32,141 nucleotides of DNA from a bacterium (GCA_020056125.1 JAGVIJ010000066.1:1-32141); one strand, 5' to 3'; positions 3,028 to 31,168 are shown, counted from the stretch's first letter. The notes: generated by a model from the letters alone, not told the origin. Numbers and translations are program-made.

Positions 3028-3699
3028 ATGTTGAACTACCGCGCGGTCGGCACTCGCTGTGCTGTGGACATGGGTGAGTTGGCTCAAGCTCTGGACCTCC
3101 CGGAGGAGCGAGTCGCGTGTCTACTCGCCCAAATCGGATTCGACATGTGTCGCGCTGATCCCGTGCACTGGGCCAAACAACTCGTGGGTCAGGCCAACTA
3201 CCACCGCGATGCGCCATTCGAACTGGCTCCGCAAGTCGTGGACTGTTCCAGCCTGACCAAGTGGGTCTACCACCAATGCGGCATCTGGTTGCCTCGACAG
3301 GCCGTTCAACAGAGGAGAAGGACCGCCGCTCATCCGGTCAAACTCCGTAACCTGAGAGCCGGCGATCTGGTGTTCCGTACCGGTTATGGCAACTCCTGGT
3401 ATCCGGATGAGGACATCAGCCAAGGCGTAGGGCACGTGGGTCTGGCCACAGGTCAGGACACTGTGATCCACGCCATCAAGTGGGACGGCATCAAAGAAAC
3501 GTCCCTCAAATCGTTCTTGGGCAAGTGGCCCCGTCACGGCGCCACCCGCGTCTTGCCAGCCGAGCGTTGCATCCTGACACTGGTCTGCAACATGGTGCAC
3601 GGCATCGAGTACTCGGAGGATGTGTTCTTTCTGCTCCAAGCAAACCTGTACGAGCAGCACAGCCGCGGCCGCAAGAACAAGCGCCGCGCCAAATCCTAA
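3028..3699 (+). CDS. NlpC/P60 (C40) family cysteine peptidase
   Basis: Catalytic Cys context VDCSSLTKWVY, then GDLVF, His in GHVGLATG, and a second His in VIHA. AGGAGA lies 7 nt upstream of the ATG at 3028. The ORF track starts at an upstream TTG (2992), which I consider less likely. No signal peptide is seen. Confidence 0.8.
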   Translation: MLNYRAVGTRCAVDMGELAQALDLPEERVACLLAQIGFDMCRADPVHWAKQLVGQANYHRDAPFELAPQVVDCSSLTKWVYHQCGIWLPRQAVQQRRRTAAHPVKLRNLRAGDLVFRTGYGNSWYPDEDISQGVGHVGLATGQDTVIHAIKWDGIKETSLKSFLGKWPRHGATRVLPAERCILTLVCNMVHGIEYSEDVFFLLQANLYEQHSRGRKNKRRAKS

Positions 3700-3739
3700 C
3701 CCGCCGGTCTTCTCTTTCCCCGCCCGGCGGGATTTTTTA
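3700..3739 (+). terminator. Rho-independent terminator
   Basis: Stem cccgccgg (3700-3707) pairs with ccggcggg (3724-3731), followed by a T-run (attttttat). Confidence 0.8.
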
Positions 3740-3774
3740 TTGCTATTTTTGAAAAAAATTGATAGTTTATCTGC

Positions 3775-6312
3775 ATGTCCAATGAATATCATGCGCGCGA
3801 AATCGAGCCCAAATGGCAAAAACAGTGGGAGCAAGATGGGATTTATCATGCGGCTCGAGAATTACCTACCGCGAAAAATGAAGCACCCCCCCGCCATAAG
3901 CGGGGTGGTATCGCGGAATCCGCCGAAGCCATCCGCTCTGCGAAGGCGGACAAAAAATTTTACGGCTTGATTGAATTCCCCTATCCCTCGGGCGAGGGTT
4001 TGCATGTGGGGCATCCGCGTTCATATACGGCCATTGATATTGTGACGCGCAAGCAACGCATGCAAGGGAAAAATGTGCTCTACCCCATGGGCTGGGACGC
4101 CTTTGGTTTGCCCACTGAAAATTTCGCCATCAAACACAAAATCAAACCGCAAGACGCCACGCGGAAAAATATTGCGAACTTCACGCGCCAACTCAAGTCG
4201 CTGGGCTTGGGCTTTGATTGGTCGCGCGAAATCAATACCACTGACCCGGCGTATTATAAATGGACGCAGTGGATGTTTTTACAATTTTTCAAACACGATC
4301 TGGCTTACAAGGCCAAGACTCTGATCAACTGGTGCCCATCGTGCAAAATCGGTCTGGCTAACGAAGAGGCACAAGGCGGAATTTGCGAACGTTGCGGCGG
4401 CACAGTGGAAAAACGCGAAAAGGAACAATGGATGATTGCCATCACCAAATATGCGGATCGCTTACTGTCCGATCTCGACACCGTGGACTATCTGGACAAG
4501 ATCAAAACTCAACAAATCAATTGGATCGGTAAATCCCAAGGTGCCACTATTGATTTCAAAATAAAACCTACTCACTACTCACTACCCACTACTCACTCCA
4601 ACCCGATCCGCGTCTTCACCACACGACCGGACACCTTATTCGGCGCCACGTTCCTGGTAGTATCGCCCGAGCTCGCTAAAACTTGGATGGACGCGGGATG
4701 GAAAGCGCCGCGAGCGGTCAGCGCTTATATCAAATCAGCCCTGAAGCGCACCGAAGAGGATCGCGCTACCACCGACAAAGAAAAAACCGGCGTGGCTTCA
4801 GGTATTGAGGCGGTGAATCCGGCGACCGGCAAACCCATTCCCATTTGGATCGCGGATTATGTGCTGGCGGGTTATGGCACCGGAGCCATCATGGCTGTAC
4901 CGGCGCACGATGAGCGCGATTTTGCATTCGCTAAAAAATTTAAATTGCCGATTGTGCAAGTGGTATCCTCGCCTGAAAATTCTTCAAAAATGACAGCGGC
5001 TTTTACCAGTGAGGGCGTAAATATAAATTCCGATTTTTTGGATGGGCTAGCTACTCCGGAGGCTAAAGAAAAAATGATCAGCTGGTTGCAAAAAGAAAAA
5101 CACGGCGAGCCGGCCGTGACCTACAAACTGCGCGACTGGGTATTTTCGCGCCAGCGTTATTGGGGCGAACCCATTCCGATTATCAACTGCGCCAAGTGCG
5201 GTTATGTGCCGGTGCCGGAAAAAGATTTGCCGGTCAAACTGCCCGAGGTCAAAGCCTACGAACCTACTGACACGGGTGAGTCGCCGCTCGCGGCCATCAA
5301 ATCCTGGGTGGAGGTTAAGTGCCCCAAATGCGGAGCCAAGGCCAAACGCGAAACCGACACCATGCCCAACTGGGCCGGTTCATCGTGGTATTTTTTGCGC
5401 TACTGCGATCCGCAAAATGATCAAACTTTTGCCGCGCCTGAAAAACTCAAATACTGGATGCCGGTTGATCTGTACAACGGCGGCATGGAGCACACCACTT
5501 TGCATCTTTTGTATTCGCGCTTTTGGTACAAATTTTTGTGGGACATCGGCGCCATCCCCAAAGAGTGCGGCGCTGAACCATACCGCATGCGGCGTTCGCA
5601 TGGTCTGATCTTAGGTGGCGGCGGAGTGAAGATGTCCAAGTCCAAAGGCAACGTGATCAATCCGGATGATGTGGTAGCCGAGTATGGCGCTGATGTGTTT
5701 CGCGTGTACGAAATGTTCATCGGGCCGTTTGACCAAGATGCGCCCTGGGACACGCATGGCATCGAAGGAGTAAAACGGTTTTTGGAAAAGGTTTGGCGTC
5801 TCTTCTCTAATTTCCATCTTCCATCTTCCACCTTCCATCTTCCCAATGCGACAGAAACTCTGCTCCATCAAACAATCAAGAAGGTCGGCGAGGATATTGA
5901 TTCATTAAATTTCAACACAGCTGTGTCAGCCCTGATGATCTTAGCCAATGCGTTAGCTGAGTCGGGCGCGGAAAAAATCTCTCGCGACACGGCGGAAATT
6001 TTCTTAAAATTATTGGCGCCTTTTGCTCCACATATCACCGAAGAATTGTGGCGCGGGCTGGGACATAAAGAGACCATCCATTTATCCGAGTGGCCCAAAT
6101 TCAATCCGAAAAAAATCACGGCCGCGACTTTTGAGTTGGTGATTCAAGTCAACGGCAAAGTGCGCGATCGCATTTCCGTCCCCTCCGGCATTTCAGCCAA
6201 AGAGGCGGAACGCCAAGCCTTGGCCTCGGAGAAAGTGCAAGGTTTTTTAGCCGGCAAAAAGCCGCAAAAGATCATCTATGTCCCGGGCAGATTGGTGAGC
6301 ATTTCGGTTTGA
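3775..6312 (+). CDS. leuS: Leucine--tRNA ligase
   Basis: HIGH-region PYPSGEGLHVGHPRSY, KMSKS loop VKMSKSKGN, FTTRPDTLFGATF, and the zinc-type motifs CPSC/CERC and CAKC/CPKC. Length is 845 aa. Confidence 0.97.
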   Translation: MSNEYHAREIEPKWQKQWEQDGIYHAARELPTAKNEAPPRHKRGGIAESAEAIRSAKADKKFYGLIEFPYPSGEGLHVGHPRSYTAIDIVTRKQRMQGKNVLYPMGWDAFGLPTENFAIKHKIKPQDATRKNIANFTRQLKSLGLGFDWSREINTTDPAYYKWTQWMFLQFFKHDLAYKAKTLINWCPSCKIGLANEEAQGGICERCGGTVEKREKEQWMIAITKYADRLLSDLDTVDYLDKIKTQQINWIGKSQGATIDFKIKPTHYSLPTTHSNPIRVFTTRPDTLFGATFLVVSPELAKTWMDAGWKAPRAVSAYIKSALKRTEEDRATTDKEKTGVASGIEAVNPATGKPIPIWIADYVLAGYGTGAIMAVPAHDERDFAFAKKFKLPIVQVVSSPENSSKMTAAFTSEGVNINSDFLDGLATPEAKEKMISWLQKEKHGEPAVTYKLRDWVFSRQRYWGEPIPIINCAKCGYVPVPEKDLPVKLPEVKAYEPTDTGESPLAAIKSWVEVKCPKCGAKAKRETDTMPNWAGSSWYFLRYCDPQNDQTFAAPEKLKYWMPVDLYNGGMEHTTLHLLYSRFWYKFLWDIGAIPKECGAEPYRMRRSHGLILGGGGVKMSKSKGNVINPDDVVAEYGADVFRVYEMFIGPFDQDAPWDTHGIEGVKRFLEKVWRLFSNFHLPSSTFHLPNATETLLHQTIKKVGEDIDSLNFNTAVSALMILANALAESGAEKISRDTAEIFLKLLAPFAPHITEELWRGLGHKETIHLSEWPKFNPKKITAATFELVIQVNGKVRDRISVPSGISAKEAERQALASEKVQGFLAGKKPQKIIYVPGRLVSISV
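3869..3950. repeat. GC-rich double hairpin embedded in frame in the leuS N-terminal region
   Basis: Outer stem ccgcga (3869-3874) pairs with tcgcgg (3911-3916). It encloses ccccgc (3889-3894) pairing with gcgggg (3900-3905). A second hairpin pairs tccgcc (3919-3924) with ggcgga (3945-3950). Confidence 0.55.
4568..4599. repeat. Heptamer array: ctactca ctactca ctaccca ctactca ctcc (in frame in leuS)
   Basis: Read directly from the sequence. There are 4.5 copies of a 7-nt unit, and the third unit carries a T-to-C change. It encodes PTHYSLPTTHS. Confidence 0.9.
5812..5843. repeat. Heptamer array: ttccatc ttccatc ttccacc ttccatc ttcc (in frame in leuS)
   Basis: Read directly from the sequence. 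The architecture matches 4568-4599 (4.5 units, third unit with T-to-C). It encodes FHLPSSTFHLP. Confidence 0.9.
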
Positions 6313-6348: not shown

Positions 6349-7203
6349 ATGACTGGTACCTACGGCGTGCCTGTCGTGGACATGAAGACAGGCGGGCCAG
6401 AATTTGCACAGCGCTTTGGCACTGGATTGGAGAAGGTTGGATTTGTCGTGATTGTGAATCATGGCATCGAAGCGCGCCTCCTAAAGCGAGTCTATGAAAT
6501 TGCTCGCCAAGTCTTCGCTCTGCCCACTGAAATCAAAAAAAAATACGAAACGCCCGAAACCGGCCGGCAGGTTGGCTACACGCCGTTTCAGATGGAACAC
6601 GCCAAGGGCAGCGACCTGCCCGATCTCAAAGAATTTTGGCACCTGGTGCGGCCGGGCAATCGCAGTTATTTAAATGTTTTTCCGGACGAGATTCCGGAGT
6701 TTGAAATGATCATGCCCGAGCTGTTTCGCTCGCTGGATAAAATTTCTGTTCGTTTGATCCGCGCCTTGGAATATTATTTCCATTACAGTCCCAACCAATT
6801 GGAAGAATTGGTTCAAGAGGGAAATTCTGTTTTGCGCGTTCTGCACTACCCTGACATCGTACCGGGCATGGAGGGTGTGCGCTCGGCGGCGCACGAGGAT
6901 ATTAATTTTTTAACTTTGATGGTGGCGGCCACAGCAGCCGGATTGGAAATAAAAAATCGAGATGGCGTCTGGATTCCGGTTCATCATCCGCCCGGCTCAA
7001 TCGTGGTCAATGCCGGCGACATGCTCGAATTATTTACCTTTGGAAAATTTCCTTCCACCACACACCGCGTGATCAATCCTGCAAAACCTGACGGCGGCCG
7101 CTATTCCCTGCCGTTCTTTGTGCAGCCGCGACCCGAAGTTCCGCTGGTCACAGCCGGCGGCTTTCTCGCTCAAAGATTAAGAGAAAATAGAGTCATGACT
7201 TAA
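6349..7203 (+). CDS. 2OG-Fe(II) oxygenase family protein (isopenicillin-N-synthase-like)
   Basis: HxD facial-triad context AAHEDINFLTL, distal His in STTHRV, and the RYSLPFF motif typical of the family. Confidence 0.85.
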   Translation: MTGTYGVPVVDMKTGGPEFAQRFGTGLEKVGFVVIVNHGIEARLLKRVYEIARQVFALPTEIKKKYETPETGRQVGYTPFQMEHAKGSDLPDLKEFWHLVRPGNRSYLNVFPDEIPEFEMIMPELFRSLDKISVRLIRALEYYFHYSPNQLEELVQEGNSVLRVLHYPDIVPGMEGVRSAAHEDINFLTLMVAATAAGLEIKNRDGVWIPVHHPPGSIVVNAGDMLELFTFGKFPSTTHRVINPAKPDGGRYSLPFFVQPRPEVPLVTAGGFLAQRLRENRVMT

Positions 7204-7817
7204 ACCGGCCGGAACGCTCGAATCACGGCGCGGACTACTCCTTGAATTAATGGGTCGTGGCAATAGATGGGCTTCATGGATGAATTTGCCGGTTGCAGAC
7301 GGATGCGATCGCGCTCGCGATAGAAACGCTTGAGCGTGGCATAGGCATTATCTAACAGCGCCACCACCACATCGCCATTTTTAGGCGAAGGGTTGCGCTC
7401 CACCACCACATAATCGCCGTCTAAAATTCCATCCTCAACCATGGAATCGCCTTTAACGCGCAACACATAAGAGTTGGCTGAATCAGGCGCCAGCTCAACC
7501 GGCACAGCCATAGTCTCATGCTCGGCCACGGCCTCGATCGGCTGACCAGCCGCGATCAATCCGGCTAAAGGCAAGAGCACGCTCCGGCTCCAGCGCACAG
7601 CCTTATCCGTGGGCTCAAGATCGCGCGAAGTGGCTGAACCTGACTCGTGTAAAAATCCGCGCTCGCGCAAAGCTTGAATGTGCACATGCACTGTAGAAGG
7701 AGAAGCCAGTTCCAATCCGGACGCGATCTCGCGAAACGATGGCGGATAACCGCGGTCGTTGATGAAAGAAACGATGAAGTCTAGGACTTCTTTTTGTTTG
7801 GGCGTAAGTTTACTCAT
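7200..7817 (-). CDS. lexA: LexA repressor (S24 peptidase)
   Basis: N-terminal winged HTH (LTPKQKEVLDFI...GYPPSFREIA), Ala-Gly cleavage site in LIAAGQPIEA, catalytic Ser in VKGDSM, and Lys in ATLKRF. Confidence 0.93.
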   Translation of the reverse strand: MSKLTPKQKEVLDFIVSFINDRGYPPSFREIASGLELASPSTVHVHIQALRERGFLHESGSATSRDLEPTDKAVRWSRSVLLPLAGLIAAGQPIEAVAEHETMAVPVELAPDSANSYVLRVKGDSMVEDGILDGDYVVVERNPSPKNGDVVVALLDNAYATLKRFYRERDRIRLQPANSSMKPIYCHDPLIQGVVRAVIRAFRPV

Positions 7818-7850
7818 AATGCAAAATTAAAAATTCAAAATGCAAAATTA
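7818..7850. repeat. Left arm of an inverted heptamer-array pair: aat gcaaaat taaaaat tcaaaat gcaaaat ta
   Basis: It fills the whole gap between the lexA ATG (7817) and the stop of the four-helix-bundle ORF. It pairs with 8211-8243, with 26 of 33 positions complementary by hand alignment. Confidence 0.85.
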
Positions 7851-8204
7851 GGGTTGCTGATTTTTCACCGTTATCTGGATTTTGGCCATAATGCGTATCA
7901 ATTCCATGGAAAGATCCTCGAGACGGAGCGCAGTTGCCGCATCAAGATAATCCGAATCTTTCAAGAGACGAATCCAATAATTCGCCTCCCGCGCTTCCTT
8001 ATAAGCGATAGCGATTTTGCACACAAAATCTTTCGTTGTGTGGCCGCCAATCGCCTCCTCCACGTTTGCGCCTATGGATGTTCCCGCCCTTAGTAATTGT
8101 TTAGAAAGCACATACTCATTCTTGCGCTCATTCAAATTCTTATAGACCTGAATGACTTCAAGTGCGAATTGGTAGCTTTTGCTACGTAATACATTGTTTT
8201 CCAT
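7848..8204 (-). CDS. Four-helix-bundle protein (TIGR02436 / PF05635, 23S rRNA IVS protein / Avd-like family)
   Basis: MENNVLRSKSYQFALEV...LLRAGTSIGANVEEAIGGHTTKDFVCKIAIAYKEAREANYWIRLL matches the family signature. I place the start at the ATG at 8204. The ORF-track start (8261) would read through the promoter and the repeat arm. Confidence 0.8.
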   Translation of the reverse strand: MENNVLRSKSYQFALEVIQVYKNLNERKNEYVLSKQLLRAGTSIGANVEEAIGGHTTKDFVCKIAIAYKEAREANYWIRLLKDSDYLDAATALRLEDLSMELIRIMAKIQITVKNQQP

Positions 8205-8210
8205 ATCACG

Positions 8211-8244
8211 ATATTTTGCATTTTGCTCTTTGCATTTTGCATTG
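8211..8244. repeat. Right arm of the inverted heptamer-array pair: at attttgc attttgc tctttgc attttgc att
   Basis: Four units plus a partial unit, with the third unit variant. Its reverse complement matches the left arm at 7818-7850. Confidence 0.85.
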
Positions 8245-8249
8245 CCTAT

Positions 8250-8278
8250 ATTATAGAACAAAAGTAGAACACTTTCAA
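8250..8278 (-). promoter_or_regulatory. Sigma70-type promoter TTGAAA-17 nt-TATAAT, with GTTC-N7-GTTC in the spacer (candidate LexA operator)
   Basis: Minus-strand reading is ttgaaa gtGTTCtacttttGTTC tataat. The -35 is at 8273-8278 and the -10 at 8250-8255. The spacer holds a direct repeat, GTTC(7 nt)GTTC. Confidence 0.55.
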
Positions 8279-8366
8279 AATCCCCTGATGTGGATAACTT
8301 TAACGCTCCAAAAACTGGCCGTTGGCTGTTGTTGGCATGACATAAATCATGCTAGGATTTCAATAT

Positions 8367-8501
8367 ATGCCAGCACCGCAACGCATCCGAGAGCTTGTCG
8401 ACACCTTTCATAAAAATTATTGGTATTACCAATCTCTTGAGTACAATGAAGAACAATTGCGCCATGAGTTTTTAAACCCGTTATTTCGGTAACTCGGCTA
8501 G
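8367..8501 (+). pseudogene. N-terminal remnant of a type IIG / Eco57I-like (PglX-like) restriction-modification methyltransferase
   Basis: MPAPQRIRELVDTFHKNYWYYQSLEYNEEQLRHEFLNPLFR*LG*. The family consensus is ...YNE.q.R.eFi.PlF..LGW. TAA (8490) and TAG (8499, where the conserved Trp TGG is expected) interrupt the frame at the expected spacing. Confidence 0.6.
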
Positions 8502-8665
8502 TCTATTATGGTAGAGTCAGGTAAAATAAAATGGATAAGGAAGAAATAGGGTTTATCGCCAGAAAAGTTAGCCCGAAGGCAGGCAAACAGCAGAATTCCA
8601 TCATTGAGTCGCTCAAAGAATCATTAAAGTATTGAATGTGAAAATGGGATTTCAATCAAATAATT

Positions 8666-9676
8666 ATGCCAAATAAAAATGGTAAAAAATTTACTTTTAT
8701 AGATTTATTTGCGGGTATTGGCGGTATACGCATTGCCTTTGAGCGCGCGGGCGGCAAATGTGTTTTTACCTCTGAGTGGGATGCGCCATGCCAAGTCATG
8801 TATGAGGCAAATTTTGGGGATAAGCCGCATGGCGACATAACAAAATTGGTTGCCGAAGAAGTTCCGGATCACGATATTTTAACTGGCGGTTTTCCATGCC
8901 AGGCATTCAGTATTATTGGTAATAAATTAGGGTTTGCAGATACACGCGGGACTTTGTTTTTTGACGTCGAGCGTATTTTGAGGGTGAAACAACCGAAGGC
9001 GTTTTTGTTGGAGAATGTCAAGCAACTTACAACCCATGATAAAGGGAGAACCTTTAAAGCAATTTTGGAAAAATTAGAGAGTTTGGGATATTTTGTGCAT
9101 TATAAAGTGCTGAATGGTCTTGATTTTGGGGTGCCGCAAAGAAGAGAGCGGATCATGCTAGTAGGTTTCAAAAAAAATCATCCTTTTGAATTTCCAAAAC
9201 ATGGGGTGGCGACAAAAACACTTGCTGATATTTTAGAGCCAGATGATGAGGTTGATAAAAAACATTTTTTGAGCGACTATTTTCGTAAAAAGTTGAAAGC
9301 AAAACTTAGGGAACAAAACAAAAAAATTACTCTTCGTCCCGTTATTTTGCATGAGAATAAGGGCGGTAATCTTGGGATACATCAACATTCTTGCGCTCTG
9401 CGCGCCAATGGCTCATATAATTATCTGACTGTAAATGGAGAACGGCGACTTTCGCCACGAGAAATGTTGCGATTACAAGGCTTTCCCGATACATTCAGGA
9501 TTGTTGTGCCGGATACACAGGCAAGGAAACAGGCGGGTAATAGTGTTGTTGTGCCGCAAATTGCGGCCGTGGCATGCGCAATGATACAGGCGATGAACCA
9601 AACTCCGCAAAATAGATTGGCACAAGCGGATTTATTCACAAAGACAATAAAAATAGAAAAAGTATATGCGCACTAA
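8666..9676 (+). CDS. DNA (cytosine-5)-methyltransferase (type II)
   Basis: Motif I FIDLFAGIGG, motif IV GGFPCQAFS, motif VI LLENVKQL, motif VIII QRRERIMLVGF, and motif X GNSVVVP. The conserved blocks closely resemble those of M.HhaI. The target recognition domain differs, so specificity is not assigned. Confidence 0.95.
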   Translation: MPNKNGKKFTFIDLFAGIGGIRIAFERAGGKCVFTSEWDAPCQVMYEANFGDKPHGDITKLVAEEVPDHDILTGGFPCQAFSIIGNKLGFADTRGTLFFDVERILRVKQPKAFLLENVKQLTTHDKGRTFKAILEKLESLGYFVHYKVLNGLDFGVPQRRERIMLVGFKKNHPFEFPKHGVATKTLADILEPDDEVDKKHFLSDYFRKKLKAKLREQNKKITLRPVILHENKGGNLGIHQHSCALRANGSYNYLTVNGERRLSPREMLRLQGFPDTFRIVVPDTQARKQAGNSVVVPQIAAVACAMIQAMNQTPQNRLAQADLFTKTIKIEKVYAH

Positions 9677-10733
9677 ATGTTTTTCAAAATCAGCTTTGGA
9701 TCTGGTGATTCGCAAGTCCCGCGTTCATTTGTACAAACCAATTCAGATTGCTGAAATCCTCCATCGTCACAGGACTGAACGGGGTTGGGATTTAAACGAT
9801 TTGGAATCCTACCGCAATATTTCAAAACGATGGCGGGACGAAGTATCCTCGCTTTTGGTGGGGCGTAGAAGCACATCGAGCCAGAAATATCAGGACAATA
9901 TTTTCGAGGCGAACGCTATGCCACCGGCTCTGCTTGCAGAATTAGGAACGATGAATAAAAAAGGCCAAGGGTTTATTGAAGCGTATGTTTATAAAGCGCT
10001 GGAGGCGCGTCTTTCGTCGGTGAGAGGGGTCGAAGATTATATAAGAAATTCAACCGCAGATACATTCTTAATGAAAGAACTAGTCGCTCTTTTTCAAACC
10101 ACTCCTGGGCTTCGGCGAAGCATAGACAAGATGTATGAAATTTTGGTTTACGCTTTGTTCGATTCAATTGTTCGCGCTTTAAAAGCTCAGATAACTCTAG
10201 AGATTGGAAACAAAGACACGGAAATTTTGAAAGATTTTGAGCGATTTATCAAAATGGTTTTGGGTGTTGATTCAAAACAGACGAAGCTTGTTTTTCCTGC
10301 CGCATTATATCGCGTGGGCGTAACCAATGCCGCGGATAGGGGGTTGGATATGTGGACAAATTTTGGTCCTGCGGTGCAAGTTAAACATCTCACTCTCACA
10401 GCGGAATTGATGGAGGATATAGCAGATAATATCACTGCTGATAAAATTGTTATTGCCTGCATTGATACAGAAAAAGATGCAATCGAGTCATTGTTAAAAC
10501 AGGTTGGCTGGAGCGAAAGGATACAAGGAATTATTACTATCACTGACTTGGATGAGTGGTATAAACTTTGTTTGAGCAAAAAATACCGCGGCAATCTTGG
10601 CGAAAAATTACTCCAAAATATTGGACGAGAATTTGCCGCAGAATTTCCGTCAAGCAAAGAAATCGCGCCTTTTATGGCGAGGCGGGGGTACGATAAAATC
10701 ATTATGCCGCATGATTGGCAAATCCAAATTTGA
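9666..10733 (+). CDS. Putative type II restriction endonuclease, partner of the 5mC methyltransferase
   Basis: Its start overlaps the methyltransferase stop by 11 nt, and it is followed by vsr. A possible PD-(D/E)xK-like element is GLDMWTNFGPAVQVK. The family was not identified by eye. Confidence 0.5.
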   Translation: MRTKCFSKSALDLVIRKSRVHLYKPIQIAEILHRHRTERGWDLNDLESYRNISKRWRDEVSSLLVGRRSTSSQKYQDNIFEANAMPPALLAELGTMNKKGQGFIEAYVYKALEARLSSVRGVEDYIRNSTADTFLMKELVALFQTTPGLRRSIDKMYEILVYALFDSIVRALKAQITLEIGNKDTEILKDFERFIKMVLGVDSKQTKLVFPAALYRVGVTNAADRGLDMWTNFGPAVQVKHLTLTAELMEDIADNITADKIVIACIDTEKDAIESLLKQVGWSERIQGIITITDLDEWYKLCLSKKYRGNLGEKLLQNIGREFAAEFPSSKEIAPFMARRGYDKIIMPHDWQIQI

Positions 10734-10740
10734 TTTATGT

Positions 10741-11139
10741 ATGGACACTGTCTCGAAACAGAAACGGAGCGAAATAATGTCTCGGATAAAAAGCCGAGAC
10801 AGTAAAATTGAGACATTATTTCGTAAAGAACTTTGGAACCGCGGTTTTCGTTATCGCAAAAACTCCGGCAAATACTTCGGCAAGCCGGATATTGTTTTGA
10901 AACGGCATAAAGCAGTCATTTTTATTGATTCTTGTTTTTGGCACGGGTGCAAAAAACATTGTCGGATTCCGTCTCTTCACAAGAATTATTGGACACAAAA
11001 AATTGTTAGAAATATTGCGCGAGATAAAGAAGTTTCTATGCACTATAAAAAGCAAGGATGGAAAATTTTTAGAATATGGGAGCACGAAATTAAAAAGGAT
11101 GCAGCGGCGATTATTAAAAAAATTGGTCTCAGAGCCTAG
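10741..11139 (+). CDS. vsr: Very short patch repair endonuclease
   Basis: KRSEIMSRIKSRDSKIE...GKPDIVL...AVIFIDSCFWHGC...YWTQKI.RN..RD...GWKIFRIWEHE matches the Vsr signature. The start is taken at the ATG at 10741, not the upstream ORF-track start. Confidence 0.9.
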   Translation: MDTVSKQKRSEIMSRIKSRDSKIETLFRKELWNRGFRYRKNSGKYFGKPDIVLKRHKAVIFIDSCFWHGCKKHCRIPSLHKNYWTQKIVRNIARDKEVSMHYKKQGWKIFRIWEHEIKKDAAAIIKKIGLRA

Positions 11140-14732: not shown

Positions 14733-17486
14733 ATGAACTTTTCCCGTTTTATAAAACGGCTGGTTAATTGCGGACTTGTCTCCAGCACTTTAATCCTGTC
14801 GCCTCTGCCGACATTACCTTTTAACATACCTGAAGCGCGAGCCGCCTCGCCCATTGCCATCGGCGAAGTGGCCTGGGCCGGGTCTGCCTTATCCGACGCT
14901 GACGAATGGTTGGAGATTTGGAATCTCGGCGACCAAAATATATCTCTCGCCGGTTACGCTCTGACCGGAGCCAACAAACAACCCATTTATTTTCCTGATG
15001 ACGCCGCCCTCCCGGCGCAAGGAGCGTACCTGGTAGCCAACTATGCGAGCGACAATGAAAAAAGCACGCTAGCTGTGGAGCCTCAACTGGTTACCTCCAC
15101 TCTCTCCTTATCTAATACCGCGCTCCGCCTCGCACTCCTCGACCCCAATGGCGTTGAGATAGATGTGGCGGGCGATGGAGCTGCTCCGTTAGCCGGACAT
15201 TCAGGCGACATCAAAGCCAGCATGTTCCGCAACGGCGATGCTTGGGCTACTTCCACTGCATCTTTTAATTTTGATCCGGCTGCGTCTGAATCAGGGACTC
15301 CGGGTCTCGTGGACTACTTCTTGCCTGCACCGAAAAATTCAGAGCCACTACCCGTGGAGGTTGTGTTGCCCGTAGAAGAACCTCCGGTTGAATCAGCTAG
15401 CTCCACGGTTGAATCAGTCCCGAGCTCCGAACCTCAAGCGCCTTATAATCTGGTGAGATTAAACGAGCTCATGCCTGATCCGGATGGAGAGTCTGAATGG
15501 ATTGAGGTGGCCACCTTGGATCCGAGTATCGCTGTCTCATTAGACGGAATGCAGATCCATGATGCGGTAGGGAAAATTTATACTTTCACCACCGGCACGC
15601 TGGATGTAGCCACTCCTTTTGTCCGCGTGTCTCTTACCTCCGCACGCCTGAACAATGGCGGCGACACCGTGAGTCTACGCGATCCGGCTGGAAACTTAGT
15701 GGATGAATTCGTGTATGCCGATTCAGAAAAAAATCAAACCTGGTCGCGCTATCCGGACATAACCGGAGACTGGTCGCTGACCGAAGCCACGCCTGACGCA
15801 GCCAACTTGCCACCCGGCACTATAGTTGAAGTCACGCCCGAAGTTATAGTCGCTGAAGAGGTCGCGGTTAGTTCAACTGCCAACGTTTCAGAAGTTGCCG
15901 CGTCCACATCCACCGAACAAACATCTAATGAATCTCAACCGCGCTTTGATTTAGTTAAACTAAATGAAATCATGGCCAACCCGGATGGCGAGTCCGAGTG
16001 GATTGAAGTGGTCACCTTGGATTCAAACATCGCCGTCCCATTAGACGGACTGCAAATCCATGATGCTGTGGGAAAAATCTACACCTTCTCCACCGGCACA
16101 TTGGATGTGGCCACTCCTTTTGCTCGCGTGTTCCTCTCATCCGCGCGCCTGAATAATGGTGGCGACACCGTGAGCCTGCGTGATTCAAATGGAAACTTAC
16201 TCGACGAATTGATTTATGACGGATCAGAAAAAAATCAATCCTGGTCGCGCTACCCGGATAAAACCGGCAGTTGGTCACTGACCGAAGCCACGCCTGACGC
16301 GTCCAACTTGCCGGCGGGCACCGTGACCGAAGTTGTTCCAGAGGTTGCAGCTACATCAACTGCGATCGTCGCCGAGACAACAACCTCCACCGTGGTTGCG
16401 GAAACCGCCACGCCCGCACCGACTTCATCTTCTTCACCGGTCGTGCCGGCCTCGTCTTCTACGCCAACCGTACCGGCTGCATCCACCGCACCGGTTACAA
16501 CAACCGTGCCGTCTGCGCCATCCTCATCATCTGTACCGGTCGTGCCAGTCGCCCCGTCCACGGCCACGGTTGCCACACCCAAAGCCACTACCGTGAAAAC
16601 TCCAGCGGCTCCCAACACCACAACCGCAGAAACCAAAAAAATTGGCACCACAAGTACTGCTACAAAATCCACTACCACCAAAACCACTACCCCAAAAACC
16701 ACCACGGCCAAAACCACTACCGTTAAAACTTCCGCCGCTCAAAATCTACCTATTCCTATCACCATGGATATGACACATGTCGAAGATAACGCGGGCATCC
16801 GCGTCTCACTCACCGGCATCATCGGATCGCAACCCGGATTAATGACCGGCCACCGATTCATTCTGCTCTCACCTGAAGGCCGCGGACTTTTAATCAAAGT
16901 TCCGACCGCTCTCAAATTGCCTGATGCCGGACAAACCATCGAAGTCACGGGCAAACTCTCGTTCGACGATTTAGGCGCTCCCTCGCTCAGCTTCGGCAAA
17001 ACCGATGGCTGGCAAAAAACCGAGAATCAAAATTCAACCGTCGCACTGCGCAACGTCAACCTGGCCGCACCCTCGATGGAAGACGCTTGGAGCTTAGTCA
17101 GTACCCAGGGCACCGTAGTTTCGGTTCGCACCAGTACCTTTACCCTGGCGTTAAACTCCGGAGAGATTGATGTGGCCATCCGCAAAGTGGTGGACTATCG
17201 CACCTCGCGCATTTCCGTGGGCGACGTGATGCAAATCACCGGCCTCTTGGACATGTCCCAAGACGTTCCGCGGATCATTCCGCGCAGCGCCGATGAAATC
17301 ACGCTCATCAAACACGCTGAAATCGTCCAACCCGCCGCAACAAAACCCACGCTACCCGGCTGGACACCGTTTGGAGCCGCAGGCTTGGCCGTGGCCGGAA
17401 CCGAAGGAGTCAAACGATTCCGCTTGTTTCGCCGCCGCCGCAATTTGGAAAAAGTTCTGGAAACTGATATAAATGGTAAGGTATGA
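14733..17486 (+). CDS. Secreted lamin-tail-domain (LTD) repeat protein with a Pro/Thr/Ser linker, OB-fold-like C-terminal region and a basic tail
   Basis: Signal-peptide-like N-terminus. Three LTD-type modules are present (IGEVAWAGS..DEWLEIWNLG; twice LNE(L/I)M..PDGESEWIEV...NNGGDTVSLRD). A linker of about 130 aa is rich in T/P/S/A/V. The C-terminus is PGWTPFGAAGLAVAG followed by KRFRLFRRRRN. Confidence 0.8.
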   Translation: MNFSRFIKRLVNCGLVSSTLILSPLPTLPFNIPEARAASPIAIGEVAWAGSALSDADEWLEIWNLGDQNISLAGYALTGANKQPIYFPDDAALPAQGAYLVANYASDNEKSTLAVEPQLVTSTLSLSNTALRLALLDPNGVEIDVAGDGAAPLAGHSGDIKASMFRNGDAWATSTASFNFDPAASESGTPGLVDYFLPAPKNSEPLPVEVVLPVEEPPVESASSTVESVPSSEPQAPYNLVRLNELMPDPDGESEWIEVATLDPSIAVSLDGMQIHDAVGKIYTFTTGTLDVATPFVRVSLTSARLNNGGDTVSLRDPAGNLVDEFVYADSEKNQTWSRYPDITGDWSLTEATPDAANLPPGTIVEVTPEVIVAEEVAVSSTANVSEVAASTSTEQTSNESQPRFDLVKLNEIMANPDGESEWIEVVTLDSNIAVPLDGLQIHDAVGKIYTFSTGTLDVATPFARVFLSSARLNNGGDTVSLRDSNGNLLDELIYDGSEKNQSWSRYPDKTGSWSLTEATPDASNLPAGTVTEVVPEVAATSTAIVAETTTSTVVAETATPAPTSSSSPVVPASSSTPTVPAASTAPVTTTVPSAPSSSSVPVVPVAPSTATVATPKATTVKTPAAPNTTTAETKKIGTTSTATKSTTTKTTTPKTTTAKTTTVKTSAAQNLPIPITMDMTHVEDNAGIRVSLTGIIGSQPGLMTGHRFILLSPEGRGLLIKVPTALKLPDAGQTIEVTGKLSFDDLGAPSLSFGKTDGWQKTENQNSTVALRNVNLAAPSMEDAWSLVSTQGTVVSVRTSTFTLALNSGEIDVAIRKVVDYRTSRISVGDVMQITGLLDMSQDVPRIIPRSADEITLIKHAEIVQPAATKPTLPGWTPFGAAGLAVAGTEGVKRFRLFRRRRNLEKVLETDINGKV
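15438..16345. repeat. Tandem duplication (period 501 nt) of an LTD module inside the surface-protein gene
   Basis: ccggatggagagtctgaatggattgaggtgg at about 15481 recurs as ccggatggcgagtccgagtggattgaagtgg at about 15982. The protein copies look mostly identical by eye across the roughly 135-aa LTD module. Confidence 0.85.
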
Positions 17487-17972: not shown

Positions 17973-18533
17973 ATGCGAAAAGAACCCACGCTGTATGACG
18001 TAATAGATGTCATACAAACCACATCAGAAAAAATCGATACGCGATTCGACGAGACTAATTCCAAAATTAATGGTTTAGAAAAGTCACTCACCTCAAAAAT
18101 TGGATCGTTGGATTCAAAGATTGATGGGGTTGAGAAATCGCTTAACGTCAAAATTGACAGCGTCGCTAAAGACACCCATCAACGCATAGACGACGTTATT
18201 GAGATAATGAATGTTTTCGCCTCTAACGTGGATCAACGATTCGAAAAAGTAGATCAGCGATTCGATACGGTGGATCAACGATTCGAAAAAGTAGATCAGC
18301 GATTCGATACGGTGGATCAACGATTCGAAAAAGTAGATCAGCGATTCGACACGATGGTCACTAAAAATTACCTGGACAACACTATATCGGATCTGCGTGC
18401 AGATCTGGTGCTCTTAACCAGAAAGGGAAATTTTAAATTCTCGGTGCTGGTTGAGGATTTGGTTGAGACAGGTTCGCTCTCGCGCAAAGCCGCCAAACAA
18501 ATTCTGGCTCTCGAACCCTTTCCGCAAAAATAA
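17973..18533 (+). CDS. Coiled-coil repeat protein (DxRF-type heptad-like repeats)
   Basis: Repetitive KIDTRFDE..KINGLEKSL..KIGSLDSKIDGVEKSL.. followed by three copies of VDQRFEKVDQRFDT. No catalytic motif is seen. Confidence 0.65.
   Translation: MRKEPTLYDVIDVIQTTSEKIDTRFDETNSKINGLEKSLTSKIGSLDSKIDGVEKSLNVKIDSVAKDTHQRIDDVIEIMNVFASNVDQRFEKVDQRFDTVDQRFEKVDQRFDTVDQRFEKVDQRFDTMVTKNYLDNTISDLRADLVLLTRKGNFKFSVLVEDLVETGSLSRKAAKQILALEPFPQK
18228..18353. repeat. Tandem 42-nt repeat x3 (gtggatcaacgattcgaaaaagtagatcagcgattcgatacg)
   Basis: Units lie at 18228-18269, 18270-18311 and 18312-18353. The third unit has one substitution. Confidence 0.9.
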
Positions 18534-24665: not shown

Positions 24666-24711
24666 TTCAATGCCAAATGGCATATTGCTAAAACCGAATT
24701 TCCAGGCGCGA

Positions 24712-24739
24712 AATTCGACATTCGATATTCGAAATTCGT
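24712..24739. repeat. Heptamer array: aattcga cattcga tattcga aattcgt
   Basis: Four 7-nt units. The array ends 8 nt upstream of the ATG at 24748. Confidence 0.85.
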
Positions 24740-24747
24740 AACTATTT

Positions 24748-25002
24748 ATGTTTTATCTTTATTACCTTCTCATCCTCTGGATTGTGCTGGTGGCAATTTT
24801 TGTCATCATGTCAGCCTTGAGCATTATGCAAATGTTACGCTTTGGACTATCCGGCGCCGGCACTTATTTCTCCACCTTGATTTTTGTGGCAGTGGGAGCC
24901 GTGATCATTGCCGGTTGCTCGTTCTATTTTGCCACCATTGATTGGAATGCCGCTCTAAACTTCGGCGGCTTAATTCAAGATTCAATTTCAGCACCCTTTT
25001 AA
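24748..25002 (+). CDS. Small hypothetical membrane protein (84 aa)
   Basis: Three hydrophobic helices. It lies directly upstream of the PH-domain protein gene, 2 nt away. Confidence 0.55.
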   Translation: MFYLYYLLILWIVLVAIFVIMSALSIMQMLRFGLSGAGTYFSTLIFVAVGAVIIAGCSFYFATIDWNAALNFGGLIQDSISAPF

Positions 25003-29321: not shown

Positions 29322-29326
29322 TCCTT

Positions 29327-29354
29327 AACTCGAAATTCGATATTCGATATTCGT
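29327..29354. repeat. Heptamer array: aactcga aattcga tattcga tattcgt
   Basis: Four 7-nt units. It is a near copy of 24712-24739 in the same orientation, and ends 5 nt upstream of the pdaD ATG. Confidence 0.85.
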
Positions 29355-29359
29355 AAAAT

Positions 29360-29935: not shown

Positions 29936-31168
29936 GTGTTGCGCTTAATTTTGATTCTTTTACCGCTCGTTCTGCCGACTTATGTCGTGCGTTTTAAAGT
30001 CGGTTCTCTGCCCACCACGCTGTTGGAAATTTTTGTATTTCTTTTCCTCGCAGTCTGGACATACCAACGCGGCATTAAAGGATGGAAAAACGGATGTGCG
30101 CAACTCTGCTCGCAAAAATGGCTTTGGCCGCTGGCCGCGTGGCTGGTTGTTGGCGCCCTGGGAATTTTCATTGCGCCTGATCACTTGGCTGCGCTCGGCT
30201 TGTGGCGCGCTTATTTTTTAGAACCGATTTTGATCTTTGTCCTGTTGGCTGACCTGATTAAAACAGATGGCGACAAACGTTTACTCATCCGCTCTTTAAT
30301 CTTCATCAATATTTTTGTGGCGCTCTGGGCCGCATTCCAATTTTTCACCGGATTGGGAATCCCCTCGCCTTGGAACGCGCTACCGGCCGGTATCCGCGCC
30401 ACCGGGCCATTCCCTTATCCCAATGCTCTGGCTCTGTTTGCGGTTCCCATCTCCGCCCTCTGCTTCTACCTTGCAATGCAATGTCAAACCATTCGATATT
30501 CGAAATTCGCCTGCCTTGCCGGCAGGCAGGATATTCGAAATTCGATATTGTGGCTTGGATTCCTAAGCGGCCTGGCCGCGACCCTGCTAGCCAAAAGCGA
30601 TGGCGGCTTAATCGCGCTCATAGCCGCAGTCTTGATCACTCTGATCCTCAAACGCCGCACCAGACTCCCGGCTATCATCATAGCCATACTCATCGGAATT
30701 TTACTTTGCTCTATTCCAGTTGTGCGCAACACCGTCTCACAAAAAATATTTTTTAAAGATTGGTCAGGTCAAGTGCGTCTGGTCATGTGGCAGGAGACAG
30801 CCGCCATGTTAAAAAACCGACCCATTTTCGGCGCCGGACTGGGTGCGTATCCTGATGTCATCCAACCCTATCACCAAGCAACGTGGATGGAGATCTTTCA
30901 ATATCCGCACAACATTCTTTTGAATCTTTGGTCAGAGGTTGGCTTGCTCGGCATACTGGCTTTCACCTGGTTGCTCGTCCTCTGGATTAAACGCGGCGGA
31001 CTGATCGCATTGCCCATCCTGGCCGCGCTCTTGATTCAGGGTTTAGTGGATGTGCCTTATTTCAAAAACGACCTGGCCATTTTATTTTGGATTTTAATGG
31101 CCGTGACTCTTTCAGCGCACAAAATTACGGCTGGAGAATATCCTCGGTGCGACCATCAATCGAAATAA
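29936..31168 (+). CDS. O-antigen ligase family (Wzy_C) membrane protein
   Basis: Multi-TM protein. The Wzy_C-like core is LLAKSDGGLIALIAAV...GAGLGAY...YPHNILLNLWSEVGLLG. The GTG/TTG start is approximate. Confidence 0.75.
   Translation: MLRLILILLPLVLPTYVVRFKVGSLPTTLLEIFVFLFLAVWTYQRGIKGWKNGCAQLCSQKWLWPLAAWLVVGALGIFIAPDHLAALGLWRAYFLEPILIFVLLADLIKTDGDKRLLIRSLIFINIFVALWAAFQFFTGLGIPSPWNALPAGIRATGPFPYPNALALFAVPISALCFYLAMQCQTIRYSKFACLAGRQDIRNSILWLGFLSGLAATLLAKSDGGLIALIAAVLITLILKRRTRLPAIIIAILIGILLCSIPVVRNTVSQKIFFKDWSGQVRLVMWQETAAMLKNRPIFGAGLGAYPDVIQPYHQATWMEIFQYPHNILLNLWSEVGLLGILAFTWLLVLWIKRGGLIALPILAALLIQGLVDVPYFKNDLAILFWILMAVTLSAHKITAGEYPRCDHQSK
30490..30552. repeat. Composite insert: 3 heptamers (cattcga tattcga aattcgc), a hairpin (ctgcc..ggcag), then 3 heptamers (tattcga aattcga tattgtg), in frame in the ligase gene
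   Basis: Read directly from the sequence. It is 63 nt (21 codons) and translates as IRYSKFACLAGRQDIRNSILW. The central cctgcct/aggcagg stem has 7 bp. Confidence 0.85.

Follow-up and report, generated by a model that had tools for sequence, protein, structure and literature searches.

What is a small gene of the 23S rRNA intervening sequence (IVS) protein family doing between the promoter and the start codon of lexA? The question is raised by a 32,141-nt stretch of bacterial DNA (GCA_020056125.1 JAGVIJ010000066.1:1-32141; hereafter the window), the host of which is assigned by its LexA homologues to the Patescibacteria, near Uhrbacteria. We consider positions 7818-8243 of the window to be, quite probably, a discrete, horizontally acquired IVS-type cassette, in which a PF05635 four-helix-bundle (4HB) gene lies within two inverted arrays of ~4 heptamers each. 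Intervening sequences that carry an open reading frame (ORF) are known from rRNA; what is new is a cassette of this type in the leader of an mRNA.

A 4HB gene between inverted heptamer arrays in the lexA leader

The components of the locus all lie on the minus strand, in the order promoter, 5′ arm, 118-aa ORF, 3′ arm, lexA. The promoter, of the sigma-70 type and identified by promoter scan and inspection of the sequence, consists of a −35 hexamer TTGAAA (8273-8278) and a −10 hexamer TATAAT (8250-8255), a match at 11 of 12 positions. Its 17-nt spacer contains a GTTC-N7-GTTC motif (gttctacttttgttc, 8256-8270), a putative LexA box recognized as a motif shared upstream of orthologous lexA genes. 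Six bases separate the −10 hexamer from the 5′ arm (8213-8243), in agreement with the promoter and distance given in an initial annotation of this DNA, and transcription is predicted to start at ~8243-8244, where the arm begins. In the sense direction the 5′ arm, an array of ~4 heptamers with a period of 7, reads AATGCAA twice, then AGAGCAA, AATGCAA and a terminal AAT, and is followed after eight bases by the ATG (at 8204) of the 4HB gene (7848-8204; PF05635/TIGR02436, subfamily A), the only ORF that the two arms enclose. The 3′ arm (taattttgcattttgaatttttaattttgcatt, 7818-7850), likewise a period-7 array and the inverted partner of the first, runs from the ORF stop codon to the lexA ATG. All 30 nt that separate the stop codon (7848-7850) from the ATG (7815-7817) are arm, so the earlier observation that this arm is the entire spacer stands. 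The host gene that carries the cassette in its leader, lexA (7200-7817, 205 aa), was identified by matches to TIGR00498 (E 8.8e-51), PF01726 and PF00717.

Over 31 nt (7818-7848 and 8213-8243) the complementarity of the arms is 84%, and both have a period of 7, as expected of the inverted four-heptamer arms that had been proposed. Their RNA duplex has a calculated energy of −26.1 kcal/mol, compared with −8.2±2.5 kcal/mol for shuffled arms, and none of 1000 shuffles was equally good, confirming the anticipated difference from shuffled controls. When the 5′ arm was paired with any other heptamer array of the window the energy was never better than −6.4 kcal/mol, and in the fold of the 451-nt transcript the arms form the closing stem (z = −3.8; 0/100 shuffles). 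The arrangement of arms plus ORF is real and beyond chance. A reading of the arms as chance low-complexity sequence is ruled out by the shuffles and by the difference between cognate and non-cognate arm pairing, and a terminator or attenuator is ruled out because no T-run follows the stem and lexA begins directly behind it. A scan of positions 7000-9000 against Rfam at a permissive threshold returned matches at chance level only.

The protein encoded between the arms had been suspected to be of the TIGR02436/PF05635 type, and a hidden Markov model (HMM) search upheld this, with 94.3 bits for TIGR02436 (cut-off 24; E 4.8e-27) and 86 bits for PF05635 (cut-off 33.8; E 2.5e-24). The protein also matched the sequence of PDB entry 2RLD (E 1e-22). 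Its AlphaFold model (predicted local distance difference test score, pLDDT, 95) has four helices, and aligns with template modeling (TM) scores of 0.87-0.95 to 2RLD, 0.71-0.74 to Xcc0516 (2GSC) and 0.76-0.82 to the phage Avd protein 4DWL. By sequence and by predicted fold, therefore, we assign it to the PF05635/TIGR02436 (23S rRNA IVS protein) family. Across 34 homologues 18 residues are invariant. The family is large, as a protein search (E ≤ 1e-3) recovered 8163 representatives of 50%-identity clusters; an exact-sequence look-up of the 118-aa protein itself gave no match. A scan of 2.9 million viral contigs found only two relatives, and neither PADLOC nor PHROGs produced a match to the protein, leaving a defense or phage origin without support.

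Filled and empty lexA loci

Our comparison set comprised 80 orthologous lexA loci (L001-L080). A 4HB gene lies between the promoter and lexA in six of them (L032, L046, L047, L059, L060, and L051, in which the copy is frameshifted), and in all six the ORF is surrounded by inverted heptamer arrays, the unit of which differs by locus and is mirrored across both arms. Filled loci occur at scattered positions in the LexA tree, the nearest relatives of each being empty, and the site is also empty in the closest relatives of the window, L001 and L002, whose LexA proteins are 90% and 88% identical to that of the window. The cassette is thus an insertion relative to most orthologous loci, and the empty sites that the initial annotation had proposed to look for in related genomes exist.

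In at least 59 of the 80 loci a LexA box, GTTCTATTTTTGTTC, lies no more than 60 nt from the lexA ATG, often at a distance of only 6 nt, and in most Uhrbacteria-like genomes this GTTC-N7-GTTC motif is located ~20-60 nt upstream of lexA and overlaps the promoter. By comparison with alphaproteobacterial GTTC-N7-GTTC boxes we take GTTCTATTTTTGTTC to be a direct-repeat SOS box; it would then represent an alphaproteobacterial-type SOS box in bacteria of the candidate phyla radiation (CPR). The position of the ATG only 6 nt behind the LexA box in many loci suggests that lexA mRNA is leaderless there.

Two pairs of related loci give a closer view of the cassettes. L032 and L045 have DNA that is ~94% identical, and L032 carries a ~470-nt leader cassette at a site that is empty in L045, whose leader is 28 nt. 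L032 has two further cassettes, one directly after the lexA stop codon and the other ~700 nt further on, neither of which is present in L045, and the ORFs of all three are TIGR02436 members. In L059 and L063 a cassette downstream of lexA is 97.2% identical (differing by 12 nt, and by 2 aa in the ORF) and the adjacent lexA 83.7% identical, with the rise in identity falling exactly at the lexA stop codon. Cassettes have recently been gained, lost and exchanged between relatives.

The flanks of lexA are preferred sites, as the 80 loci contain 20 4HB genes, 15 of which abut it. The proteins around lexA form three subfamilies with <30% mutual identity, each with its own heptamer class (A, AATGCAA, AATGCCA or AATTACG; B, CGTACAA-like; C, CATGTAA). 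Subfamily A is found upstream of lexA in six loci; subfamily B, with its CGTACAA-like arms, directly after the lexA stop codon in eight (L012, L032, L037, L044, L047, L052, L059, and L063); and subfamily C, with CATGTAA arms, near lexA in L032, L042, and L025. L032 therefore holds all three subfamilies, its downstream copies being at 3600-4030 and 4290-4710. At the same leader site, L053 has both ends of an L032-type cassette without an ORF, which form a 30-bp stem (z = −5.9).

Other sequences were also observed in lexA leaders. That of L042 (1420-1940) contains a GxxExxY gene (TIGR04256, E 3.7e-21) that is broken by a stop codon, with two ATTACGA units and an inverted repeat of 12 bp (tgaaccttgatt / aatcaaggttca) at its flanks; ahead of the lexA promoter, L037 and L044 also have ends resembling aatcaaggttcag. 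This pseudogene is a different IVS-type cargo in the same leader. In L008 and L012, GC-rich palindromic units (ggggagggcgggacaagcccgcccctac and variants) lie between the LexA box and lexA, followed by a heptamer array of the ACTACCA type.

The array design across the protein family

The design is shared by the wider family. We assembled 80 metagenomic loci encoding proteins 47-60% identical to that of the window, and in ~63 of 72 the strongest inverted repeat linking the 130-nt flanks surpassed every shuffled control. Phased AAT-N4 arrays were present in 58/71 upstream and 53/71 downstream flanks, against a background of ~2.5% for 130-nt stretches from other parts of these loci, a pattern for which an orientation control is uninformative since AATT is palindromic. 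The heptamer consensus is AATTAnG, with a conserved AATTA core and variable positions 6-7, and there are 4-5 phased units per arm. Of 53 homologous cassettes, 30 have a 3′ arm that starts at the ORF stop codon. For 19 of 75 5′ arms, the best partner among 75 candidates was the 3′ arm of the same element (~1 expected), an excess which indicates that the arms co-vary within elements beyond their shared consensus. Neighboring genes are co-directional, upstream in 52/58 cases and downstream in 49/58, with gaps of ~30-40 nt, and gaps of this length imply that the arms fill the spacers; the cassettes, in other words, sit in sense orientation in operons with their arms occupying the spacers. None of the 71 metagenomic loci had a cassette with non-coding flanks on both sides, the placement expected in rRNA.

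Inverted-array cassettes are also found in named bacteria: in Caldithrix abyssi DSM 13497 between two non-ribosomal peptide synthetase (NRPS) genes, in Tenacibaculum jejuense between trpD and trpC, and in Flavobacterium ponti in the men operon. The C. abyssi cassette (L161) has a near-identical counterpart on a related contig (L162), the two differing in their number of units, 4 versus 5 AATTACG in the 5′ arm and 3 versus 4 CGTAATT in the 3′ arm, such that the number is shifted in the same direction in both arms.

In 716 kb of loci we counted 207 heptamer arrays. These include 74 inverted pairs: 57 pairs enclose a 4HB ORF, and ~10 form hairpins whose loops measure 9-51 nt. Another 99 occur singly, as solo arrays. 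Hairpins of inverted arrays without an ORF were identified in L015, L022, L036, L091, L098, L136, and L157, with units that vary by locus, and several of them adjoin a 4HB cassette or occupy a lexA leader. Outside the cassettes, array density was 1.12 per 10 kb in lexA loci with a 4HB gene and 0.79 per 10 kb in those lacking one, which is no clear difference.

The inverted heptamer-array design is family-wide. It also appears to be previously undescribed, as in the open-access literature we found no paper linking PF05635 genes outside rRNA to inverted heptamer arrays, and the suggestion in the initial annotation of an undescribed element has gained support, in the form of a discrete, gained-and-lost, family-wide cassette.

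Comparison with known systems

The closest known system is the rRNA IVS, as found in Coxiella burnetii, Leptospira, Brucella, and Xanthomonas and in the 16S and 23S rRNA genes of CPR bacteria, where insertions with 23S_rRNA_IVP ORFs occur (PMC11270868). The IVS of the C. burnetii 23S rRNA gene is 428 nt long, with a 28-bp terminal stem and 3-4 tandem GACAGAT heptamers, varying in number between strains, in front of an S23p ORF, and RNase III cuts it at the start of the first repeat, as determined in vitro and by rapid amplification of cDNA ends (PMC4990558). The likeness to IVS geometry that had been pointed out for the lexA leader is therefore closer than the initial annotation knew, the Coxiella element sharing stem, heptamers and S23p ORF with ours. 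Both kinds of element have a sense-oriented PF05635/S23p ORF as cargo, terminal inverted repeats of ~28-31 nt that form the closing stem, and tandem heptamers within that stem beside the ORF start (GACAGAT x3-4 in Coxiella, the period-7 arms here). Both also have a patchy distribution suggestive of horizontal transfer (PMC4990558, PMC11270868). They differ in that the window element lies in an mRNA leader rather than in helix 25 or 45 of 23S rRNA or in 16S rRNA, and in that its ORF is well conserved, whereas that of Coxiella is decaying. For the rRNA elements, RNase III cleavage, an excision from the transcript without religation, has been demonstrated; for the window element it is predicted. 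PMC4990558 describes as open the origin and mobility of rRNA IVSs and the function of their conserved ORF, questions that date from the early 1990s.

The arms also recall intergenic heptamer repeats, namely the short tandemly repeated repetitive (STRR) sequences of Cyanobacteria and the TAACTGA repeats. The latter are direct repeats, found in Beggiatoaceae, Cyanobacteria, and Bacteroidetes, that stop 1 nt short of start codons and were left unexplained (PMC4679880). Arrays of 2-6 forward units that end just before start codons (PMC4679880) match the 3′ arm before lexA and two solo arrays of the window (at 24708 and 29324). Unlike the cassettes, the STRR and TAACTGA repeats are reported as direct repeats only, with other unit sequences and no link to PF05635. 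In repetitive extragenic palindromic (REP) sequences, their hairpin-forming arrangements (REPINs) and the associated REP-associated tyrosine transposase (RAYT), too, a small gene lies between inverted short repeats that also occur as ORF-less hairpins and as solo intergenic copies; RAYT, however, is an HUH nuclease, whereas the 4HB protein has no recognizable catalytic motif, and REP sequences are palindromes of 20-40 nt rather than tandem 7-mers. A large CRISPR survey names "23S rRNA IVP" in a figure legend as one of the protein families associated with CRISPR arrays (PMC10910872).

A model for the cassette in the lexA leader

In the explanation we favor, the element at 7818-8243 would be of the same kind as the ORF-bearing intervening sequences of 23S and 16S rRNA, and would have inserted at the point where transcription of lexA starts, ahead of a gene whose mRNA otherwise has a short leader or none. 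Such a cassette would need no promoter of its own, being read from the LexA-controlled promoter of its host, and control by LexA would make the 4HB gene SOS-inducible. Transcription would begin with, or close to, the first base of the 5′ arm, and the two arms would pair as a ~31-bp stem that brings the start of the RNA up against the nucleotides preceding the lexA AUG. On the precedent of the homologous rRNA elements, RNase III probably processes this stem. The cut would separate the 4HB message from a lexA message with a short AU-rich 5′ end, near the leaderless state of its relatives, and it is presumably this short leader that makes the insertion tolerable. The data fit spread by recombination, recognition by the encoded pentameric protein of its own heptamer arrays, or both.

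Several observations weigh against this account. Five mismatches fall in a central 9-nt stretch of the stem in the window. Mismatches between arms, read on the sense strand, comprise 28 G:U and 47 A:C, and as there is no excess of G:U, there is no demonstrated selection for an RNA stem over inverted repeats at the DNA level. An RNase III substrate does not need a 7-nt periodicity, so a stem alone leaves the anatomy of the arms unexplained. At the junctions of the filled and empty sites of L032 and L045, where the sequence has diverged, neither a target-site duplication nor a clean excision footprint is visible. Finally, the tract of high identity shared by L059 and L063 extends ~150 nt beyond the 3′ arm, which fits recombination and not precise transposition.

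The periodicity is the point of departure for the principal rival of the IVS-type explanation, or its complement, as the two are compatible: that the pentameric 4HB protein binds the heptamers, as RNA or as single-stranded DNA, with one unit per protomer, and that the arms are its operators or handles. Binding could serve post-transcriptional control of the 4HB gene itself and of the gene downstream, with the solo arrays before other start codons as a regulon, or it could serve propagation of arrays and cassettes, in the way that RAYT propagates REP sequences; on either view the long stem would be secondary. We regard such recognition as a possibility worth keeping in view, though not as the probable explanation. 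It would account for a strict 7-nt period with a conserved AATTA core and variable positions 6-7, and for a number of units per arm (4-5) that resembles the homopentameric state of family members in crystals (five chains in 2RLD; a pentameric toroid for Xcc0516, PMC4990558). A structural relative, Avd, binds nucleic acid in the ribonucleoprotein of diversity-generating retroelements (DGRs; structure match 8UBE), and each protein subfamily has its own heptamer class, although that correlation is equally expected if arms and ORF merely travel together. The ORF-less hairpins and the 99 solo arrays also speak for recognition, as do the solo ATT-phase arrays at 24708-24743 and 29324-29357, each of which stops shortly before a start codon, and the comparable placement of TAACTGA repeats 1 nt before start codons in three other groups (PMC4679880); but the solo arrays of the window (ATTCGAN) are unlike its own arms (ATTTTGC), and arrays outside cassettes are about as dense where there is no 4HB gene. 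We think it rather doubtful that the cassette is instead a transposon-like element at the DNA level, with arms that are terminal inverted repeats or hairpin ends for an enzyme encoded elsewhere and an RNA stem that is incidental, on the model of miniature inverted-repeat transposable elements (MITEs), the ends of the insertion sequences (IS) IS200/IS605, or attC sites. The presence/absence polymorphism between close relatives (L032 versus L045, and the patchy LexA tree) is what a transposon, IS or MITE would produce, the ORF-less derivatives that keep both ends (L053, L022, L036, and L015) are MITE-like, the arm mismatches have no RNA wobble signature, and one Caldithrix-type contig has a unit more than the other in each of its arms. 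The window, however, encodes no transposase, HUH enzyme, integrase or reverse transcriptase in the larger ORFs scanned, there is no transposase-encoding parent of the kind that MITEs have, and no target-site duplications were seen at the (diverged) L032/L045 junctions. The strong bias toward sense orientation and the spacer-filling geometry point to dependence on host transcription, and the two relatives in the viral contigs are few for such an element.

The presence of 15 of 20 4HB genes beside lexA, with subfamily A upstream in six loci and B directly downstream in eight, could also be read as the mark of a vertically inherited, domesticated partner of lexA, a conserved gene of the SOS operon instead of an insertion. 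This is very improbable and largely refuted by the comparisons above, since most orthologous loci have no 4HB gene, every filled locus has empty nearest relatives, homologues occur elsewhere in unrelated operons (NRPS, trp, men), and in L042 the same leader is held by the GxxExxY pseudogene. A DGR remnant with the 4HB gene as its Avd has the least in its favor and is refuted for this window. The protein does have the fold of Avd, as its TM score to 4DWL indicates, pentameric assembly is known within the family, and PF05635 genes are common beside DGR reverse transcriptases (PMC10053308). Its identity to Avd is only ~12%, however, and the NCBIfam equivalog for Avd did not match it, nor did PADLOC or PHROGs. 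No RVT domain was detected in the larger ORFs scanned in the 32-kb window, in line with the earlier statement that a reverse transcriptase is absent, and there is no pair of template and variable repeats and no long direct repeat near the gene. With neither a reverse transcriptase nor such a repeat pair, this reading was rejected. We know of no flanking inverted heptamer arrays as a feature of DGRs.

A broader proposal, which goes beyond the IVS-type cassette and which we put forward as speculation that is unlikely to hold in full, is that PF05635 proteins and tandem heptamer arrays are one self-propagating system across bacterial phyla. In such a system the pentameric protein would read its cognate heptamers, one unit per protomer, and would drive or stabilize hairpin-shaped cassettes that colonize operon spacers, mRNA leaders, and rRNA helices. 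It would embrace the rRNA IVSs and the intergenic heptamer repeats of Cyanobacteria, Beggiatoaceae, Bacteroidetes, and CPR bacteria, and perhaps arrays that are in frame within genes.

The locus and its relatives suggest that only a minority of a much larger cassette population resides in rRNA. That wider population lives in mRNA leaders and operon spacers, with arms specific to subfamilies, empty and filled sites, and ORF-less derivatives. Binding of protein to repeat, processing by RNase III, and movement are testable in cultured Flavobacterium, Tenacibaculum, and Caldithrix. The cassettes also matter for annotation, as they put a foreign gene under a host promoter (here the SOS promoter) and hide the beginning of the following gene in a stem, and the repeats of their arms may confuse repeat and CRISPR detectors.

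Other period-7 arrays and neighboring genes

A tandem-repeat scan of the window found further period-7 arrays at 4565-4600, 5806-5845, 24708-24743, 29324-29357, and 30483-30550. The initial annotation had placed the cassette termini in the same repeat class as six other sites of the window, and this holds only in a loose sense, as to the period of 7 and the ATT phase, and not as to the units, which differ from those of the arms. The arrays at 4565-4600, (CTACTCA)x4.3, and 5806-5845, (TTCCATC)x4.6, are in frame within leuS, where they encode ..THYSLPTTHSNP.. and ..SNFHLPSSTFHLPN.., and the former falls where the protein has an insertion of ~8 residues that Thermus thermophilus LeuS lacks. Those at 24708-24743 and 29324-29357 are solo ATTCGAN arrays that are 90% identical to one another over 30 nt and resemble the 3′ arms of subfamily A, (CGTAATT)n, more than the window's own arms do. 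The first follows ruvB and precedes an ATG at 24748, and the second takes up all 38 nt that separate a gene for polysaccharide synthesis from one for a pyruvoyl arginine decarboxylase. At 30483-30550, two direct ATTCGAN arrays lie around a GC-rich hairpin (cctgccttgccggcaggcagg), and the whole is read in frame (QTIRYSKFACLAGRQDIRNSILW) in an O-antigen-ligase-like ORF, just before its Wzy_C domain.

At 8349-8492 and 8666-11139, divergent from the cassette, are a restriction-modification island with a C5 cytosine methylase, a HaeII-type endonuclease, and a Vsr mismatch endonuclease, and ahead of it a 47-aa ORF that has no Pfam match and resembles the N-terminal stub of another gene. Repeats with longer units are also present in the window, including a 21/42-nt tandem repeat of 5.7 copies (18228-18357) inside a coiled-coil ORF (17973-18533) and a 300-nt direct repeat, 78% identical (15429-16229), inside a lamin-tail-domain gene (14733-17486).

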